Part shown: piece after piece, positions 13,769 to 22,087 of the stretch
How positions within the stretch are numbered: the first letter of the stretch is position 1
Layout: each line of letters begins with the position of its first letter
Virus record (IMG/VR): IMGVR_UViG_2663763326_000007
Source: a virus
Lineage: Duplodnaviria > Heunggongvirae > Uroviricota > Caudoviricetes
Reading direction: 5' to 3' (one strand)
DNA: 43,062 nt
Program-made: the position numbers and the translations under genes
The notes under the pieces: model-generated
Told to the model about the DNA's origin: nothing
Databases searched by the model: none
What the model saw: the letters and a program-made list of their open reading frames with translations, nothing else

Positions 13769-15075
13769 TATTCATCCCCTAAAATTGAACGCCCTGCAGC
13801 AACCAGCATCGAGACGTTTGCGGTTGTTCCTGTTGCCGTAGTACTGCCAGCATCCTGAATAGTCGCTGGTGATTCAGTGCTCATTAGTGTATCGAGCGCC
13901 GTTTCTGTCCGCGCCTGCGCCGTTTTAGGTGCTGCAGCGAGGACTACCTGCGCCTGCCCGACCGTCATCCCGGGGACGCCAGCGAGCGCTTTTGCCTGCG
14001 CCTCGCGCCCAACAGCTTCGGGACAATTGATGATGGCCATCACACGCGCCAGTTCGCTTGATGCGGCGTCCGCGCGAATCTGCTCCGTGTTAAACTCAAC
14101 CTGCGCGACAGTAGTCGTGGTCGCGGTTTGTTCTGTGGTCGTGGTCTCCGCCGTGGTTTCTGTACCAGACATAAAGCGCTCCATTTTTGGTTTCAGTGCG
14201 TCGGCCATCACTGCGATAGCGTCCGCGTAATTAACGAGTTGATCAGCGAGACCAGATTTAATCGCGTCCGCGCCGATAAATACTGCAGCTTCCGTGGCCA
14301 GCACCCTGGATTTTTTCAGCCCGGTATAATCCGAGACTTTTTGCGCGAACTGCTCGCGCGTGCTGTTAATACTCAGCTGGAATTCGTCGCGAACGTCGCC
14401 TGGCAGCTGGGAATACGGGTTCCCGTCAACTTTGTGCGCGCCGGCGTAAATCAGCGTCACGTCGACGCCAGCAATCTCCAGCGCTTTTTCGACGCAGCGG
14501 TGAGCCATCAGGACACCGATTGAACCAACTGTGCCTGTCTGCGTTATCAGCCGGCGCGAACACGCTGACGCCAGCAAATAGGCAGCGCTGCAGGCCGTAT
14601 CGCTGGCCAGCGCCCACACAGGTTTTTGCTCTCGCGCCCGGGCGATTAAATCAGCAGTATCAAACGCGCCGGCGACTTCACCGCCAGGGGAGTCAATATC
14701 AAGCAGGACCCCTCTTACATCGGGATCAGAAATCGCCTGCTGCAGGCGTTTTGCGATTCCGTTGTAACCGCTCATCCCGCTAACTGGGTTGATATAACCC
14801 AATTTATGAACCAGCGTCCCGGTAACCGGCAGAACGGCTATACCACGCTCCACGCGATACGATTTCTGGCGTGTTCGCTCGCTGCTGTCCCACCCCATCG
14901 CGAGCGCGTTCATTTCGTCGCTGTTCATTACCTCTCCAGACGCTGTATCAATCAGTCGCCCGGTACCGAACCGGTCGCTCAGCGCCGAAAAAAATACCCG
15001 CGCGTAGGTGGGCTCCAGCAAAAGCGGTTGATTGAACGCCCTGGCGGCGAGGTGCGGAAAATTGTTCCACGGCAT
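13768..15075 (-). CDS. Head maturation protease / scaffold (lambda gpC, S49 peptidase family)
   Basis: 435 aa with an SppA/ClpP-like core (..GVLLDIDSPGGEVAG..) and an Ala/Thr-rich scaffold-like C-terminal half. Confidence 0.8.
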   Translation of the reverse strand: MPWNNFPHLAARAFNQPLLLEPTYARVFFSALSDRFGTGRLIDTASGEVMNSDEMNALAMGWDSSERTRQKSYRVERGIAVLPVTGTLVHKLGYINPVSGMSGYNGIAKRLQQAISDPDVRGVLLDIDSPGGEVAGAFDTADLIARAREQKPVWALASDTACSAAYLLASACSRRLITQTGTVGSIGVLMAHRCVEKALEIAGVDVTLIYAGAHKVDGNPYSQLPGDVRDEFQLSINSTREQFAQKVSDYTGLKKSRVLATEAAVFIGADAIKSGLADQLVNYADAIAVMADALKPKMERFMSGTETTAETTTTEQTATTTTVAQVEFNTEQIRADAASSELARVMAIINCPEAVGREAQAKALAGVPGMTVGQAQVVLAAAPKTAQARTETALDTLMSTESPATIQDAGSTTATGTTANVSMLVAAGRSILGDE

Positions 15076-16649
15076 CAGTTACCTCCCCAGCCGTTATCGT
15101 TGGTATTTGAGGGGTGAGATACAGACCATGACGGTTCGCTCAGCCCCATTTCACGCCGGCGCTGAATTTCGTATTCCTGCTGCTCCATAACCTCCTCGTA
15201 ATCCTGTCCCTGCAGCGCCAGTTCGTTCTGATACGTGCTGAGGCCAGTTGTGATGCGCATGGCGCTCTCCTGAACCTCTTTCAGCCCATCAATCGCCATG
15301 CGACCAGCGCCGATCCAGAGCGCGTTCGTCCAGGAGTTCCGCGCCTCATAAAACGACCGGACAGCTGAGCGTGGCAGGGTGATAATTCCGCGTGCCAGCG
15401 CCTCTTCAAACCAGCAGCAGAACATCAGCGACGCCTGTCGCGCGGCGATAAAACGTCGACGCCCCATGAAAAATCGCCAGCTGACGTTAGCACTGGCCCG
15501 GGCGCTGGAGTAACTGACCTGGCTGTAGTCCCGGCTAAGTTCTTCGTATGACGCGCCAACGCCAGCTGCAACGTAACGCAGGAGTGATTTTTCCAGTGAA
15601 CTAAAACCAGCATCAGCATTCTGAGCGGTCTGTAAACTGAGTTTGTCGCCGGGATGCAGGTGGGGAACTTTCACACCACCGAGCTTGATATTTGCGCCGT
15701 TGTAGTACGTCACGTAACTCTGAATAAACGAATTCAGCGGGTTCGAGTCGATATCAGTACCCGCGCCGGCGATATATTCAAACGCCTGCTGGCTGTCGAG
15801 CTCTGATTCGATTGTCGCGGCATACATCGCCTTCACAATGGCGCTCTGCAGTTGTGTTTGCTGCAGTGTGTCGAGCATTTTCAGGCGCTCCATGACGCTG
15901 TAAAAAATATTGTCCCCGCGGGTCTGTCCGTCCTCGAGCGGCTCGAATATGTGGATGAATGCGTGTCTGCCGCTGCTGAGCTGTGCTGGGATACGCCGGC
16001 ATTTACCGACTCCGCCGAGAGGGTAAGTATCCTCGGCTATCCAGTACCCGACCGCGGCCCCGTTTTTATCGATATCAACACCGGCGCGGCGAAATTGAGT
16101 GTCAGCTGCGTAACCCGGATTTCGAATCCGTTTCGGTGAGACCATTTTGAATCGCGTCCGAAAAACGCTGCCGGCACTACTCTCCCAGACTGGTTGTACG
16201 CAGGTTTCACCGTTGAAAGCGTGAGTAGCCACGCCCTCGCGGATCATCATTGTGAACGTCCGTTTCCGCTCGATATCAATCGTGCAGTGAGGGTCCTCGG
16301 CGTATTCAGTCCACGCTACCTCGACGTCACGCGCCAGCGCCCTGGCGTCCTCGCGAGATATGCCGAGGTAACGCCAGTTAGGGCGATAACTCAACTTAAA
16401 CAGATTGCCGACGATATGATCCTGGTGCAGCTGCACGGCGTTCGACGCGACGCCGTTATTGCGAACGAGATCGTCTGCTCGCGCGTTACCGCGATAAAAA
16501 TTCGGCAACAGTGCTGCGTCGGCGCTCTGCTGTGGTGCGTTCCAGTCAATCAGCTGGCCACCGAAACCGGGACCGCCGCCGTTATACCCCGCGTAACGGC
16601 GTAGTGGCGTTTTACCGTCAGGCCCGAGCAGCTGCTGCGGAGCAGTCAT
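15075..16649 (-). CDS. Portal protein (lambda gpB family)
   Basis: 524-aa ORF between the gpW-like and protease genes; size and order match lambda B. Confidence 0.85.
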   Translation of the reverse strand: MTAPQQLLGPDGKTPLRRYAGYNGGGPGFGGQLIDWNAPQQSADAALLPNFYRGNARADDLVRNNGVASNAVQLHQDHIVGNLFKLSYRPNWRYLGISREDARALARDVEVAWTEYAEDPHCTIDIERKRTFTMMIREGVATHAFNGETCVQPVWESSAGSVFRTRFKMVSPKRIRNPGYAADTQFRRAGVDIDKNGAAVGYWIAEDTYPLGGVGKCRRIPAQLSSGRHAFIHIFEPLEDGQTRGDNIFYSVMERLKMLDTLQQTQLQSAIVKAMYAATIESELDSQQAFEYIAGAGTDIDSNPLNSFIQSYVTYYNGANIKLGGVKVPHLHPGDKLSLQTAQNADAGFSSLEKSLLRYVAAGVGASYEELSRDYSQVSYSSARASANVSWRFFMGRRRFIAARQASLMFCCWFEEALARGIITLPRSAVRSFYEARNSWTNALWIGAGRMAIDGLKEVQESAMRITTGLSTYQNELALQGQDYEEVMEQQEYEIQRRREMGLSEPSWSVSHPSNTNDNGWGGN

Positions 16650-16879
16650 AATCGAACTCCCACGGGCCGACGGCGTCCCGTACTCAGACCGAGCTGTGAT
16701 TTCAGCTCGATAATGTACGTTCGGAGCTGCTCAATACTCGCCTGCGAGTATTGATAGCTCCGGTTATTTCCTGCTGAATCGCCGTGAGACAGCGACACGG
16801 TCGATTTACCCGTTAATAATTTGTGCAGAGCGATTTCCGCTTCCAGCAGTCGTTCTGTTAAAACCTCGCGCGACGTCAT
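16646..16879 (-). CDS. Head-tail joining protein (lambda gpW family)
   Basis: 77 aa; MTSREVLTERLLEAEIALHKLLTGK..IEQLRTYIIELKSQ.. parallels lambda gpW. Confidence 0.75.
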   Translation of the reverse strand: MTSREVLTERLLEAEIALHKLLTGKSTVSLSHGDSAGNNRSYQYSQASIEQLRTYIIELKSQLGLSTGRRRPVGVRL

Positions 16880-18840
16880 TAGCTCCCTCCGAGCATTCTG
16901 GCCATCTCCTCGAGAGACAGTTTGTTTTGTGATTTTTTCCGTTGCTCAGCGAGCGTCTCGAGATTGAGCTGGAAACGAATTTTACTGATACGCAGCGCTG
17001 CCAGTCCGTACACCCAGCAGTCGAGCGCCTCATTTCGCCGGCCCTGGTTGTCCCAACGATAAACGACGCGACCGTTAATGAGTTTCGGGATCAGAACCTC
17101 GGAGACGAGCTGTTTTGCCTCTGTCGTGCTGAATATTTCGTCGTCGTTGGGAAAATGAATCGCACCTGGTGTCGCCGATTTGGAGTCGGGTTCCAGCTGC
17201 AGGCGCATTGCGAGCAGGTCTTTCGCTGTATCTGTCCCAATCAACGACAAATACACTTTATTCGCGTTACGGGTACGAGGCATATTTACGACCGGCTGGC
17301 CGTATGAGCTCGCGCCCTTGATTGGAATGACCCACAGCGGACCGAGTTTCAGCGAGCGGTTATAAACGACCTGCGCATCTATACCACCGGTATCCCACGC
17401 CCAGCGACTGACGCCGATTGTGGTCCCGTCGCTGCGCCGGTATTGTTTGCGAATCACTCCGTCGACGCGCTGCAGCGTGTCCTCCTCGTCGTAGCGACCG
17501 AGGACGATTGTTTTATCAATCAGCCAGCACTCCTCCTCGGCTCCCCAGCCCCACACATAACACTCGTAGCGCCCGGACGTCTGAGAGTCGATGCCGCCGG
17601 TTATATAAACAACACCGTCAGGAACCTGGCTGGCGTATTTTTCCCGGCGATTAACCAGAATATCGTGCTCCAGCTGCTCGCTGGCCACGTCGCTCCAGAG
17701 TTCGCCGAGCGTCGTGTTATGAAACGTCTTTTCCTTGAGCGGGTCGCCTTTCGCTTTCAGCCACTCGCTGACAATCTCGCCCCATCCATCGAGGTTTAGT
17801 GAATACAGGGCGTTTATCACGATCGCAGCGTGTTTCGGCGCGCGAACGACGCCACCGTCATGATCAAAAAAATGAATGCCGTCTCGGGTCCAGGTGCAGT
17901 CCTCGGCTATCCAGCGCCCCCCGAACTCCATTTTTTCGAGATCGCGATAGTAAAAATGTTCCGGGCAGTGGCAGCACTGGTAATACGCGGACGACGATTT
18001 CGCCTCATTGGTCTGCAGGCTGTTATCCCATTTGAGGCCGTATTCGATACCGTCGAAACCAAATACCAGGACCTGCTCCTCGCCACAATGCGGACATGTC
18101 AGGTAAAAACGAAACGTCAGATCGGCAGCGTCTTCGAGCATTTCGATATGACTTTTGCCGGTAACGGTCGGCGTCGAACCAAAAATCGCCTTCGGGTACG
18201 CTGCCCCTTTAATTCGAACGAGCGCCAGTTCGATGGGCGAGCCCTCGCCTTTGCCTTTTTTGGCAACTTCCAGCGGCCAGCCGTCAACTTCGTCACCCTC
18301 GACAACCTGTTTCGTTAGTCGCCGGAAATTTCCTGGTGCACTCGCGCCGCGAAAATCAAGAATCGCGCCGCTCATTTCTTTACGCTGGAGATTGTTACGC
18401 TCGTTGCTTTTATCCCAGTCGGGGAAAATTTTCTGAATCACTGGCATTTCGGCGATAGCGGGGTCAACCTCGTCGGCGACAAATCCATCCGATTCGTCAT
18501 CGATAGGCTGATAGACCACGGCACTACGTTTTTTGTGCTCAGCGAAATAGAGCAGCGCCGCGACGAGTATTTTTGTATAACCGAGACGAGCTGATTTGCG
18601 AACAGACACGATTTTTATCGCGTCGTTCGTCATCATATTGAGCATCACTACCTGGACCGGCTGAGTCGTCCAGTGCCCAGCGATGTGGCTGGAGCCCTCA
18701 GGGAGATAAAAATATTTATCAGCCCACTCAACACCCGTCATCGGTATCGTCACGCGCAAGGGATTCAACCCTGTCGAGATCGCGTTCGATATCGCTGACA
18801 TCGTAATCGCTGAAGTCGATTCGTATGTCTGACAACTCAT
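16879..18840 (-). CDS. Terminase large subunit (lambda gpA family)
   Basis: 653-aa ORF matching lambda gpA in size, with a Cys-rich ..CPHCGEEQ.. segment and a C-terminal nuclease-like region, immediately upstream of gpW and portal. Confidence 0.9.
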   Translation of the reverse strand: MSCQTYESTSAITMSAISNAISTGLNPLRVTIPMTGVEWADKYFYLPEGSSHIAGHWTTQPVQVVMLNMMTNDAIKIVSVRKSARLGYTKILVAALLYFAEHKKRSAVVYQPIDDESDGFVADEVDPAIAEMPVIQKIFPDWDKSNERNNLQRKEMSGAILDFRGASAPGNFRRLTKQVVEGDEVDGWPLEVAKKGKGEGSPIELALVRIKGAAYPKAIFGSTPTVTGKSHIEMLEDAADLTFRFYLTCPHCGEEQVLVFGFDGIEYGLKWDNSLQTNEAKSSSAYYQCCHCPEHFYYRDLEKMEFGGRWIAEDCTWTRDGIHFFDHDGGVVRAPKHAAIVINALYSLNLDGWGEIVSEWLKAKGDPLKEKTFHNTTLGELWSDVASEQLEHDILVNRREKYASQVPDGVVYITGGIDSQTSGRYECYVWGWGAEEECWLIDKTIVLGRYDEEDTLQRVDGVIRKQYRRSDGTTIGVSRWAWDTGGIDAQVVYNRSLKLGPLWVIPIKGASSYGQPVVNMPRTRNANKVYLSLIGTDTAKDLLAMRLQLEPDSKSATPGAIHFPNDDEIFSTTEAKQLVSEVLIPKLINGRVVYRWDNQGRRNEALDCWVYGLAALRISKIRFQLNLETLAEQRKKSQNKLSLEEMARMLGGS

Positions 18841-19294
18841 TTAAGGCTATCGCCAGCTCCTCTCGTAATACACTGCTCGCCTCTTGCGGCATCTCCGGCC
18901 AGACCTTTTTCAGGCGTGGTGGCCACGACTCGACGCGGGTACGTAATTCAACGGCGACGCGAGATACAGCGACGCTAATTAATTCAATTGGCGCGTAGCG
19001 TTTAGCGAGAATGCGGCGTTTTACTCGTGCCATCAGGATTCGCTCCTGTCGTTCCTCATTTTTCAGCCACTGCTCGCGATTTTTTTCGGGAGAATTGTCC
19101 CCCGCTTCCGGTTCGTCATTACTAGTTGTGTCGCGTCTATTGCTCCGGAGATAACGAATATAAAAATGGCGCCATGCGTCTAGCTCCCAATCACCACGTC
19201 CTTGTGGGACTGGTGCTCCCGGAAGTTTTGCGAGATCGCGCAGACGACGATCAGATAGCAGTAAATGTGCTGCAACCTCAGCCTGACTTGCCAT
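18728..19294 (-). CDS. Putative terminase small subunit
   Basis: 188-aa ORF directly upstream of and overlapping the large terminase gene; GGTGAGGA ribosome-binding sequence before the ATG. Confidence 0.55.
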   Translation of the reverse strand: MASQAEVAAHLLLSDRRLRDLAKLPGAPVPQGRGDWELDAWRHFYIRYLRSNRRDTTSNDEPEAGDNSPEKNREQWLKNEERQERILMARVKRRILAKRYAPIELISVAVSRVAVELRTRVESWPPRLKKVWPEMPQEASSVLREELAIALNELSDIRIDFSDYDVSDIERDLDRVESLARDDTDDGC

Positions 19295-19647
19295 TAAAAA
19301 TCCTCACCGGAACCGGAAATACCCAAAATGAAAAAATACTAAAAACGAGCGAGTTTTTGCGCGTCTACCGACCCTCGGTGTTTTGGATTTCGGAAAGGAC
19401 CCGCGACCAGGGGGCTATCTCCCTTTCAGGACAGGAATTAGGGGCTCGCATCAGGTTCATCAAACTCAACTGTAGCCTCGCGGCGTACTTGTTTGCATAC
19501 ATCAGCTTTGTGTATCTGATTATCAGCGTAAGCTTTCACTTTGGCAGCGAGCCATCCTTTTGTGCTGTATCGATAGACTACCGAACAAGTTTTCCATATA
19601 TGTATATATCTTGAACTTATTGATATCATTACAGAAAAACAACAACC

Positions 19648-19908
19648 ATGAGAACGCAAAAAATGAACAGAGAAAAAATTGAAGCCTTAATGAGCGTAAT
19701 ATTAAAAGAAGCTGACCCAAAAAAGTTTCCTGAGAAGTTATCAGAGGACGCCATCGTATCTTTTTATCGTGCGAACTCCTCTTATCTAAATTGTTCAACT
19801 TTAAGAGAATGGCTAAGCGGCGAAGCAGAGCCTTCAGATGAGATACTTCAGAAGATTATGGTTCAGAACAACTGGCGCGCAACAAAATGGTCAAATCAGT
19901 TACCTTAA
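19648..19908 (+). CDS. Hypothetical small acidic protein, antisense to the late operon (moron-like)
   Basis: 86-aa ORF on the opposite strand between the lysis cassette and the packaging genes. Confidence 0.4.
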   Translation: MRTQKMNREKIEALMSVILKEADPKKFPEKLSEDAIVSFYRANSSYLNCSTLREWLSGEAEPSDEILQKIMVQNNWRATKWSNQLP

Positions 19909-19922
19909 TCTGTTGAATGTGT

Positions 19923-19946
19923 GCCGCCTTAAAACAAAAAGGCGGC
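19923..19946. terminator. Hairpin between convergent genes (possible bidirectional terminator)
   Basis: GCCGCCTT-AAAACAAA-AAGGCGGC stem-loop between the stop at 19906..19908 (plus) and the stop at 19968..19970 (minus); flanks only moderately T-rich. Confidence 0.35.
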
Positions 19947-19967
19947 CTCTCGTTAAAGTAAATTACC

Positions 19968-20162
19968 CTATTTTCCACCAAGGCATGAAGCCTCTGCCCC
20001 GGTTGAATCAATACAACCACCGTTCGCAGTAGTAATCTTCGTACCCGGCGCGATCATCACGTGTTTAATACTGCTGCCGTCAGCGCGAGTCGCTTCGGTG
20101 TATGTCGAATGTGTGCAGCCTGCCAGCGTGAAGAACGCGACAGCTAAGAGAAGTTTTTTCAC
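19968..20162 (-). CDS. Small lipoprotein (signal peptide with LAGC lipobox), function unknown
   Basis: MKKLLLAVAFFTLAGC.. is a textbook lipoprotein signal; 64 aa, Thr/Gly/Ala-rich, not Pro-rich like Rz1, no C-terminal membrane helix. Confidence 0.65.
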   Translation of the reverse strand: MKKLLLAVAFFTLAGCTHSTYTEATRADGSSIKHVMIAPGTKITTANGGCIDSTGAEASCLGGK

Positions 20163-20285
20163 GTTTTACCTACGCTTCTGAGATAGATTTCTCAGCATTC
20201 ACCAATGGAAGTGATTGTGGAACATCCGTTTGACCTGCTGGCCAGCGGTAGCCTGTTACGCGGGAACGAGGAAAAGCTTTGATAT

Positions 20286-20648
20286 TTACTTCATCTGCCT
20301 GGTTGCCCCCAAAATCATTAAATCCCCGGCGGCATTTTTCCCGACAACAAAGCCGACGTGACCACCGCCAGACCGAGACAGAATAGCAATGCATCCATAG
20401 GCGGGTTCCTTCAGTTCATTACCCCAATCGAGATAAGAATTCGCAGACTCAAAACGCGTTGAGCGAATACCCGCACGTTCCAGCATTGCCCCGGTGAAAG
20501 CAGCGCACCACGGTGTTTCGTCATCCTTAATGCCGCCGCGTTTGATATCTTTCCAGTACTGCACAATTTCTGCAGCATGTTGCTTCCCTTTCATTTCCCG
20601 AATGCCGAGGTTTTTTCGAGCCTCGATTAGCCATTTAGGATCCGTCAT
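20286..20648 (-). CDS. Putative cell-wall hydrolase (NlpC/P60- or CHAP-like peptidase), candidate endolysin
   Basis: 120 aa with Cys in ..DETPWCAAFTG.. and His in ..GGGHVGFVVG.., a papain-like Cys-His arrangement; downstream of two membrane proteins. Confidence 0.55.
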   Translation of the reverse strand: MTDPKWLIEARKNLGIREMKGKQHAAEIVQYWKDIKRGGIKDDETPWCAAFTGAMLERAGIRSTRFESANSYLDWGNELKEPAYGCIAILSRSGGGHVGFVVGKNAAGDLMILGATRQMK

Positions 20649-20920
20649 TACCTGTCTCCTGTTATTTTTGAAATATTCCCTCGTGCCCGCCAGACAGCAA
20701 TACAGATGGTGAGGTTGAGAAAGAACTCTGCGGGATCAACCTGCGTATATTTCCCGTAAAAAATTCGTAGGGCTATCCACGCAGCAGACAGAATCGCGAG
20801 GTAAGCAGTTAGTGAGATGAAAAAACGATAGCGGCCTGTTTTTTGAAAAAACATCAACCGTAGTGCCAACATCAGACAAATAATTGCATTGGCATTGATG
20901 AGGACAGAGTGCAGGGTCAT
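20648..20920 (-). CDS. Small membrane protein (holin/antiholin-like)
   Basis: 90 aa with two to three hydrophobic helices; sits between the holin-like gene and the hydrolase. Confidence 0.45.
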   Translation of the reverse strand: MTLHSVLINANAIICLMLALRLMFFQKTGRYRFFISLTAYLAILSAAWIALRIFYGKYTQVDPAEFFLNLTICIAVWRARGNISKITGDR

Positions 20921-21303
20921 TATTTCATCCCCTTATCTGATTTCCATAAACGAGCTTGTGACATGATCCGCAACAGTGATGTAACGCTGATTACTGATGC
21001 AACCAGTGCACCAATGGCGGGAGAGACTTTTACTGTTACGGGAGGGTTCAGGTGACTCAGCACCGCGTTCAGAATACCGGTAATGATGGCTGACGCTGTC
21101 TCAGCGCAATACACACCGCCAACAAACGAAATGAGTGCGAAAATAACCTGCTTCCAGAATCGATGCTGCCCGGACGACAACACATAGAGAGCTGCGCCTG
21201 CCAGCGCACAGATCATCACTGCAGGTGTTGCCTCAGGAAATAACGCAGCAAACGTCACCCCCGCCGAGCCAGCAGCAACGCCAGCGGTTAGAGGTTCAGA
21301 CAT
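20920..21303 (-). CDS. Putative holin
   Basis: Start chosen at the internal ATG at 21301..21303 (MSEPLTAGVAAG..) preceded by AGGA; several hydrophobic helices; first gene after the late promoter. Confidence 0.5.
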   Translation of the reverse strand: MSEPLTAGVAAGSAGVTFAALFPEATPAVMICALAGAALYVLSSGQHRFWKQVIFALISFVGGVYCAETASAIITGILNAVLSHLNPPVTVKVSPAIGALVASVISVTSLLRIMSQARLWKSDKGMK

Positions 21304-21320
21304 GATTTTTCCTGATTCAG

Positions 21321-21347
21321 AAACGACAAAACCCCGCCGTGGCGAGG
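21321..21347 (-). terminator. tR'-like intrinsic terminator in the late-gene leader
   Basis: Minus-strand RNA folds as CCUCGC-CACG-GCGGGG (one G-U pair) followed by UUUUGUCGUUU, about 40 nt downstream of the promoter and just before the holin start. Confidence 0.5.
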
Positions 21348-21383
21348 TTCTTAGAAATTTGGCAACATACCAAATTAGCGTCA

Positions 21384-21411
21384 AATATGGCCTATTTTGT
21401 TCGTTTTTGCA
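21384..21411 (-). promoter_or_regulatory. pR'-like late promoter
   Basis: Minus strand: -35 TTGCAA (21406..21411), 16-17 bp spacer, -10 CATATT (21384..21389), immediately after the Q-like gene stop. Confidence 0.4.
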
Positions 21412-21415
21412 AGCA

Positions 21416-22087
21416 TTATACGCAAACGTCGTCTAAATGGTTCTGATAATGATGCAAAGTTGCAAGAAGTGCCACTTCATCAAGTGCTCTCACCGCCTCT
21501 TTCATTCCTACCCAGTGCAGGGAGTATGTTTCGCACCAGGTGGAACGAGAAACCGACAGCATTCCTGCTAGGGTAGATCCGGCCATCTCCTTAAAATCCT
21601 CGCGTTTATTTGCTGCTGCGACCGCCTGCACGGACAACCACACCAACGAAAGCAGGCGCTTAACTACTTTTCTCTGAGTTGACGCGGGGATGTTTCCTTT
21701 ATAGCGACTCCAGACAGCCTCACAAATAGCTGTTTGGTGTTTGAATGCCAGGTTACCACCGTAGCAATAACGCAACCACGCTTGCTGACTTGCATCCAGC
21801 GAGTTCACAGAACGCCGCCAGGATGAATCAGCAAATTCAAAATCACTCATCGGCGGCGCGGGGCGACGTCTGCTGAAACTTTCCAGAGCGTAAACTGGCG
21901 TAACCAGAGCATCAACGGTCCGGTCCTCCAGCTGCACACGGTGAATATGTTTGCGTGGGTATGCGTTTTTGTCTGCCGGTGGGTGCTCACACAATGCTTC
22001 CAGTTGCCCCTTAGAACCACCAGACAAATCCCGCAATGCAGCGCGCAGTTTTATGCGGGTATATTCCAATAAATACTCGTTACTCAT
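21416..22087 (-). CDS. Putative late-gene antiterminator (Q-like)
   Basis: 223-aa ORF immediately upstream of the promoter-terminator pair and lysis genes, the lambdoid Q position; family assignment tentative. Confidence 0.5.
   Translation of the reverse strand: MSNEYLLEYTRIKLRAALRDLSGGSKGQLEALCEHPPADKNAYPRKHIHRVQLEDRTVDALVTPVYALESFSRRRPAPPMSDFEFADSSWRRSVNSLDASQQAWLRYCYGGNLAFKHQTAICEAVWSRYKGNIPASTQRKVVKRLLSLVWLSVQAVAAANKREDFKEMAGSTLAGMLSVSRSTWCETYSLHWVGMKEAVRALDEVALLATLHHYQNHLDDVCV

Follow-up and report, generated by a model that had tools for sequence, protein, structure and literature searches.

Where does the terminase of this phage cut its DNA, and which bases direct it there? The question arises at positions 19295-19647 of the window, the whole stretch of 43,062 nucleotides analysed here, where the small terminase gene (TerS) and a divergent gene of 86 amino acids bound an interval with no supported gene inside. 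The first-pass annotation had proposed a cos packaging region across this interval, directly before the small terminase gene. That proposal holds for the part adjoining TerS but fails for the distal ~245 bp, about two thirds of the interval. Positions 19295-19402, read on the minus strand, are identified here as the cohesive-end packaging site of a prophage with a lambda-type head and a contractile tail, with a probability of about 0.85, together with a probable accessory element at 19105-19114. A lambda-type cos is an ordinary and expected feature of such a phage, and none of the results overturns the current understanding of lambda-type packaging. The sequence features support a cos of the lambda type with a compact cosB in the style of N15 and a different R-sequence specificity.

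The prophage and its terminase

A lambdoid prophage makes up the window; its head module is of the lambda type and its tail is contractile. On the minus strand, TerS (18728-19294, with its ATG at 19294) is followed by the large terminase gene (TerL, gpA type, 16879-18840), gpW (16646-16879) and the portal gene (15075-16649), with head and contractile-tail genes farther along toward lower coordinates; the lysis genes and the Q antiterminator (19968-22087) lie beyond cos, at higher coordinates. The divergent 86-aa gene (19648-19908, plus strand; phrog_5191, E 9.5e-62) lies between cos and the lysis genes and is transcribed against the late operon. It resembles a moron standing where lambda has bor, and a GC-rich hairpin lies downstream of it at ~19923-19950. 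Elsewhere in the window, a 738-aa ORF without a Pfam match (37194-39410, plus strand) has a Sipho_Gp157-family gene as its neighbour.

The call of a gpA-type terminase in the first pass is borne out by Pfam matches of TerL to GpA_ATPase (E 2.8e-46) and GpA_nuclease (E 5.9e-64). TerL shares 43% identity with lambda gpA (645 aligned positions), 42% with its N15 counterpart, 60% with that of Valp1 and 53% with that of phiARM81ld, and it is predicted to make the staggered nicks at cosN. The long TerL ORF, which opens at 18840, shares 113 nt with the 3' end of TerS but is read in a different frame. The first 33 residues encoded there are conserved with Valp1 TerL and similar to the N-terminus of lambda gpA, and hence the 620-aa TerL annotated in record ON470624 is probably truncated. 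TerS is a remote homologue of Nu1: it has no Pfam match and a sequence search of the PDB gave nothing useful, while its full length matches phrog_57 (E 3.2e-39), the PHROG that also holds lambda Nu1 and N15 gp1. In an hhalign comparison, its residues 3-157 align with residues 4-165 of Nu1, the N-terminal DNA-binding region included, at 92% probability (E 5.7e-7). A gpA-family TerL gene next to the site, a Nu1-family TerS gene directly downstream of it and the cosQ heptamer described below are all features of a lambda-like cos.

The module is widespread. The 126 bp adjoining TerS occur as a single copy per genome, always chromosomal, in 443 of 5426 complete E. coli genomes (at least 95% identity), i.e. 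in ~8% of them, ST131 strain JJ1886 included; no feature is annotated at the segment in these genomes, so that their cos is unannotated. In 409 genomes the segment is at least 99% identical and its subsites are without indels. Megablast against phage records found a single identical entry for the cos region, Escherichia phage vB_EcoM-705R4 (ON470624, 100% identity), which at 27 kb is evidently incomplete and whose record does not end at cos. When viral and metagenome contigs were scanned, none in the subfamily of the window was found to end at cosN.

These observations bear on whether the site is cos by descent only and no longer used, the prophage copy being defective. An IS3-family insertion in the early region (40492-41861, plus strand), consisting of an HTH orfA and an orfB with an rve integrase core, may have left this copy defective or not inducible, and the incompleteness of the only phage record with the module points the same way. 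However, every ORF among the head, tail, lysis and Q genes is intact, the identical module was deposited under a virion-type phage name, and the near-identity and indel-free subsites in E. coli genomes argue for a site that is still in use; disuse is accordingly given only a slender chance.

Anatomy of the site and register of the predicted nicks

Read on the minus strand toward TerS, the site opens with cosQ, the heptamer GGGTCCT at 19402-19396, which is the predicted packaging-termination signal. A 22-nt spacer, TTCCGAAATCCAAAACACCGAG (19395-19374), separates it from cosN, the predicted 12-bp cohesive end GGTCGGTAGACG (19373-19362). A further spacer of 42 nt, which begins CGCAAAAACTCGCTCG and continues in T tracts (19361-19320), leads to the R element TTTCCGGTTCCGG (19319-19307), and 12 nt then remain before the ATG of TerS at 19294. 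A comparison with lambda cos, proposed in the first pass as a check, finds cosQ, cosN and the R element collinear with those of lambda. The GC-rich and motif-bearing segments noticed at the outset are also real: a patch of 58-64% GC at 19375-19450 adjoins an AT-rich patch of 38-40% GC at 19300-19375, and the motif is TTTCCGGTTCCGG at 19319-19307. No cosN had been placed in that annotation, and by homology it falls at 19373-19362.

The cosQ heptamer matches, at seven of seven positions, the heptamer that stands 30 nt before the right end of both lambda and N15; cosQ has been described as a highly conserved 7-bp site (PMC4669245). On its own, GGGTCCT is found three times against 2.3 expected, which is not significant; significance attaches to a composite pattern and to its conservation. 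The 43-kb window matches the composite, cosQ-N22-GG-N8-C-N-CGCA, exactly at one place, and at two places when up to two mismatches are allowed, against 0.14 expected.

TerS relatives were gathered from phage records, IMG/VR and GTDB genomes, the scan of genome contigs contributing only six loci. In the relatives L019-L023 (TerS 84-87% identical), similarity to the window sets in at cosQ and everything farther upstream is unrelated; this onset is also seen in relatives from Enterobacter, Aeromonas, Vibrio, Photobacterium and Celerinatantimonas, and nearly all relatives have cosQ in this position. The functional unit was therefore taken to begin, on the left, at 19402. The contig L021 ends 4 nt into cosQ, possibly an assembly break where variants cease to be similar. 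Besides cosQ, the blocks conserved among relatives are a GG(G) where the 12-mer begins, C.CGCA where it ends, then C.CTC, the runs of T and TTTCCGGTT.C.G.

The genome ends recorded for relatives and reference phages fall in the same place. The N15 ends read ...ACGGGTCCTTTCCGGCAATCCGCCCTGTTACG/GGGCGGCGTCCG/CGCAGATTCTCGCT, with the first 12 bases annotated as a single-stranded sticky end, and in register N15 GGGCGGCGTCCG/CGCAGATTCTCGCT faces GGTCGGTAGACG/CGCAAAAACTCGCT in the window; the right end of lambda reads ...ACGGGTCCTTTCCGGTGATCCGACAGGTTACG, and the lambda left-end reference used was 100% identical to bases 1-244 of J02459. The Valp1 record (OR500391) carries the 12-mer GGGGCATGACCT at both ends, each copy abutting Illumina adapter sequence: one end reads ...CTCTTCCGATCT/GGGGCATGACCT CGCAG... 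and the other ...CCCCACG GGGGCATGACCT/AGATCGGAAGAGCACACG... Since the DNA came from DNase-treated, PEG-purified virions and the 12-mer stands at both physical ends, it is best read as the product of end-repair of 12-nt 5' overhangs. The adapter junctions correspond to L029 1-30 and L035 1-32, and the length of the deposited "complete genome", 42,988 bp, is slightly inflated. The PhAER-5 record, whose TerS is 46.8% identical to that of the window, has GGGCGTTAGACC at both ends, and the phiARM81ld record begins at a position that aligns with 19373 and stops, at its other end, 30 nt after the start of cosQ. Thus the record ends of Valp1, PhAER-5 and phiARM81ld and the sticky end of N15 all align with 19373-19362. 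The papers on Valp1 and HY01 do not discuss cos.

Two further records differ around this junction. In Aeromonas phage PCAh2 (PQ314494; L030 ~620-640), the cos junction reads CCCTTGCG/CGTTAGACC, fewer by GGG (3 nt) than in phiARM81ld and PhAER-5, which may reflect either genuine variation or an error in assembling the cohesive ends. In the LT-IIb toxin prophage SerU-LTIIb (KU052038 6511-6560; L004 3001-3050), a cosQ-cosN segment 84% identical to that of the window is joined to a lambda-like cosB, which suggests modular exchange at the cosN/cosB boundary; the segment is annotated within a 'NU1-like protein' CDS that is probably no gene.

The distal part of the interval has a different origin. 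Positions 19438-19546 on the minus strand hold the relic of an unrelated, non-Nu1 TerS gene (phrog_1206), which aligns over 28 aa with residues 47-74 of TerS from Klebsiella phage 2b LV-2017 (57% identity). Its presence suggests that the lambda-type packaging module took the place of an older one. The initial description of the spacer as non-coding is therefore right in that no gene is supported there, but it overlooked this relic. Beyond it, 19560-19647 is the AT-rich upstream region of the divergent 86-aa gene, and a weak promoter-like match lies at 19547-19519. If the whole interval were ordinary intergenic or regulatory DNA, with packaging by headful or from a cos elsewhere, then its distal two thirds, unrelated to packaging, and the promoter-like match would be as expected; the gpA-type terminase, the single exact composite match in the window and the relatives' genome ends at 19373-19362 would not, and such a reading is hardly credible.

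Granted a cos at this place, from the alignment of these ends we infer nicks between 19374 and 19373 on the minus strand and between 19362 and 19361 on the plus strand, which would leave 12-nt 5' overhangs. The right nick is predicted with high confidence and the left nick with moderate confidence, the latter uncertain by 1-2 nt because the cosQ-cosN spacer measures 22 rather than 23 nt and AG replaces CG at the left flank. Conserved CG dinucleotides are known to flank both nicks of cosN (PMC4669245), and the predicted cosN has CG on the right and AG on the left. The 22-nt spacer is shared by the window, L019-L023, the Enterobacter mori relative (L038) and SerU-LTIIb, with AG or GG as the left-flank dinucleotide, whereas the spacer is 23 nt in lambda, N15, phiARM81ld and Valp1. 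Measured to CGCA, cosQ is 41 nt away in the subfamily of the window against 42 nt in lambda, N15, phiARM81ld and L026.

The spacing one nucleotide shorter in the E. coli subfamily might go with an overhang of other than 12 nt, and the same site could then be nicked elsewhere: 30 nt from cosQ on the left, to give an 11-nt overhang, or as CG^AGGGTCGGTAGACG^CG, to give an overhang of 13-14 nt that would restore the missing CG flank. The symmetry of the site speaks against this. In the predicted 12-mer, the pairs 2/11, 3/10 and 4/9 are kept (GTC....GAC) about an axis between bases 6 and 7 when counted from 19373; L023 has GTCC..GGAC there, a compensated symmetry, and the E. mori relative has the perfect palindrome GTCTGCAGAC on the same twofold axis. 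In addition, the right boundary is identical to that of N15, only the 19373 register puts the R element at the distance of R3 in lambda, and the overhangs of Valp1 and PhAER-5, as recorded at their ends, and of N15, as annotated, are all of 12 nt. Nicks other than those at 19374/19373 and 19362/19361 are thus unlikely. A terminator-like hairpin on the plus strand (TACCGACCCTCGGTG, 19366-19380) extends across the predicted left nick; because L023 does not preserve the pairing, it was dismissed as incidental.

The R element and its inverted copy

With 19373 as cos position 1, TTTCCGGTTCCGG occupies positions 55-67 and the ATG of TerS is at position 80. Within it, TTTCCG at positions 55-60, preceded by GG at 51-52, has the identical placement in R3 of lambda, where, as in phage 21, bp 56 and 59 are the critical recognition contacts and the distance from cosN to R3 is critical (PMC4669245). 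The window contains no other exact copy of the element, and relatives whose TerS is as little as 35% identical still have it unchanged as TTTCCGGTT.C.G. On this conservation, TTTCCGGTTCCGG is predicted to be the R element of cosB, i.e. the binding site of TerS at the R3 position. The spacer that separates it from cosN (19361-19320) is analogous to I2 of lambda: it opens with a conserved CGCA and CTCGCT followed by T tracts, its A/T tracts lie at cos positions 16-20, 29-33, 38-43 and 46-49, and CGCA, C.CTC and the T runs are kept across the family.

The complex cosB of lambda is absent. Only 67 bp separate the 12-mer from the start codon of TerS, so that an R3-I1-R2-R1 array cannot fit; a single R element stands upstream of the gene, without R2 or R1, and the IHF consensus WATCARNNNNTTR has no match with up to one mismatch in 19295-19420. 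A different layout, the "simple" cosB, has been described for N15 and five prophages; in N15, R3 at bp 48-59 is its one critical R site, and rR2, which lies inverted within gene 1 at bp 249-260, is not essential (PMC4669245). Both of its marks are found here, a single R site at the R3 position near the start of TerS and a remote inverted element within the TerS gene.

The inverted copy of the R element, CTTCCGGTTC, is at 19105-19114 on the plus strand, cos positions 260-269 and 205 bp from the R element. By analogy, it is predicted to be an accessory TerS site like rR2, and a BLAST alignment of the two TerS proteins maps N15 rR2 to the same linker region. It encodes Pro62-Glu63, the sole invariant residues of an otherwise variable linker (alignment A1). 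A direct TTCCGG at gene offset 70, present in the E. coli group only, was not counted as a site.

Is the copy kept for the DNA or for the protein? If Pro-Glu is needed in the linker, CCGGAA could be retained for protein reasons and cosB would consist of the upstream R element alone. The invariance of the two residues is what this reading predicts, and it would sit well with the dispensability of rR2 in N15 (PMC4669245) and with two relatives, L073 and L094, that are without the in-gene copy. Synonymous positions, however, appear to be fixed as well: across distinct homologues, the Pro codon at the site is CCG in 32 of 34, compared with 21% for other Pro codons in the same genes, and the Glu codon is GAA in all 34, compared with a background of 60%, counts in which phylogenetic relatedness makes the observations less independent than their number implies. 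The flanking bases also prolong the match to the R element (YTTCCGGTTC).

A third argument against a purely protein-level constraint comes from the relative L100 (IMGVR_UViG_2872456414_000002), in which the upstream R is GGGATGTCCAGGTCCACCC (328-346) and the linker has GGGGTGGACATCCC (567-580; reverse complement GGGATGTCCACCCC) in place of Pro-Glu. Because the upstream R and the in-gene copy co-vary in this genome, a DNA-level site is favoured. L100, in which the predicted recognition helix has changed as well (DRHVTRL in place of ERQVRNL), is a candidate for a natural switch of packaging specificity. The absence of the copy from L073 and L094 fits an accessory role like that of rR2 in N15. 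Taken together, retention for the sake of the protein alone is doubtful, and the odds are put at about even that CCG GAA in the TerS linker is held mainly by a DNA-level need, as an accessory inverted terminase-binding site in the terminase's own gene.

If that were so, the arrangement would be old and widespread in lambda-head phages of Enterobacteriaceae, Aeromonas, Vibrio and Photobacterium, the in-gene site would switch specificity together with the upstream R element, as in L100, and 'simple cosB + rR2' would be a major cos architecture and not a curiosity. The comparison with relatives suggests that a compact cosB of the N15 type, complete with an inverted site inside the gene, occurs commonly. 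The TerS linker also offers a clean, testable case of a protein-coding sequence that doubles as a DNA signal.

Proposed mechanism and comparison with known systems

On the model of lambda and N15, the Nu1-family TerS would use its N-terminal DNA-binding domain to bind the single R element TTTCCGGTTCCGG, 42 bp from cosN on the TerS side, possibly assisted by looping to the inverted copy ~205 bp off in the linker-coding region. Bound TerS would position the gpA-type TerL, which would nick both strands 12 bp apart about a twofold axis between 19368 and 19367. Of the resulting 5' overhangs, the left, TerS-proximal one would read GGTCGGTAGACG, and the one at the end with the lysis genes would be its complement. 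Packaging would then proceed toward lower window coordinates, by way of TerS, TerL and the genes for head and tail, and its termination at the next cos of the concatemer would depend on cosQ (GGGTCCT), 22 bp upstream of the left nick. Knowledge of cos and of the packaging direction would help to predict genome ends, to orient assemblies and to judge what flanking DNA or satellites might be packageable.

The site shares with lambda cos the same cosQ heptamer, a partly symmetric cosN that retains G2 and C11 and runs into CGC, A/T-rich sequence beyond cosN, a TTTCCG R element at bp 55-60, and a Nu1-family TerS gene succeeded by a gpA-family TerL gene. It differs in that TerS starts at cos position 80 rather than 191, which leaves no room for I1, R2 and R1, and in the lack of an IHF consensus; moreover, the spacer is 22 rather than 23 nt, the cohesive end differs at 6 of 12 positions, TerL is just 43% identical and TerS is recognisable by profile methods only.

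The telomere phages Valp1 from Vibrio and phiARM81ld and PhAER-5 from Aeromonas have the same TerS/TerL family (TerL 53-60% and TerS 45-47% identical), the same R element, the in-gene inverted element and the same overall layout, and a 12-nt terminal duplication is visible in the records of Valp1 and PhAER-5. Unlike the present module, which in its 443 E. coli copies is found in the chromosome only, these are linear-plasmid prophages with a protelomerase; their cosQ-cosN spacer is 23 nt and their 12-mer sequences are different.

With N15, the site has in common one R site at the R3 position, a distance of ~80-90 bp between the end and the start of TerS (80 in this site and 89 in N15), an inverted copy ~200 bp farther on, where TerS encodes its linker (260-269 here, 249-260 in N15), and the identical placement of CGCGCA at positions 11-16 and of CTCGCT at 21-26. 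The R sequences themselves are unrelated, TTTCCGGTTCCGG here and GAGGTTGTTGTT at bp 48-59 of N15, so that a different packaging specificity is to be expected, and the TerS proteins are ~21% identical. These differences exclude the prophage from the N15 specificity group, but the architecture of the two sites is the same.
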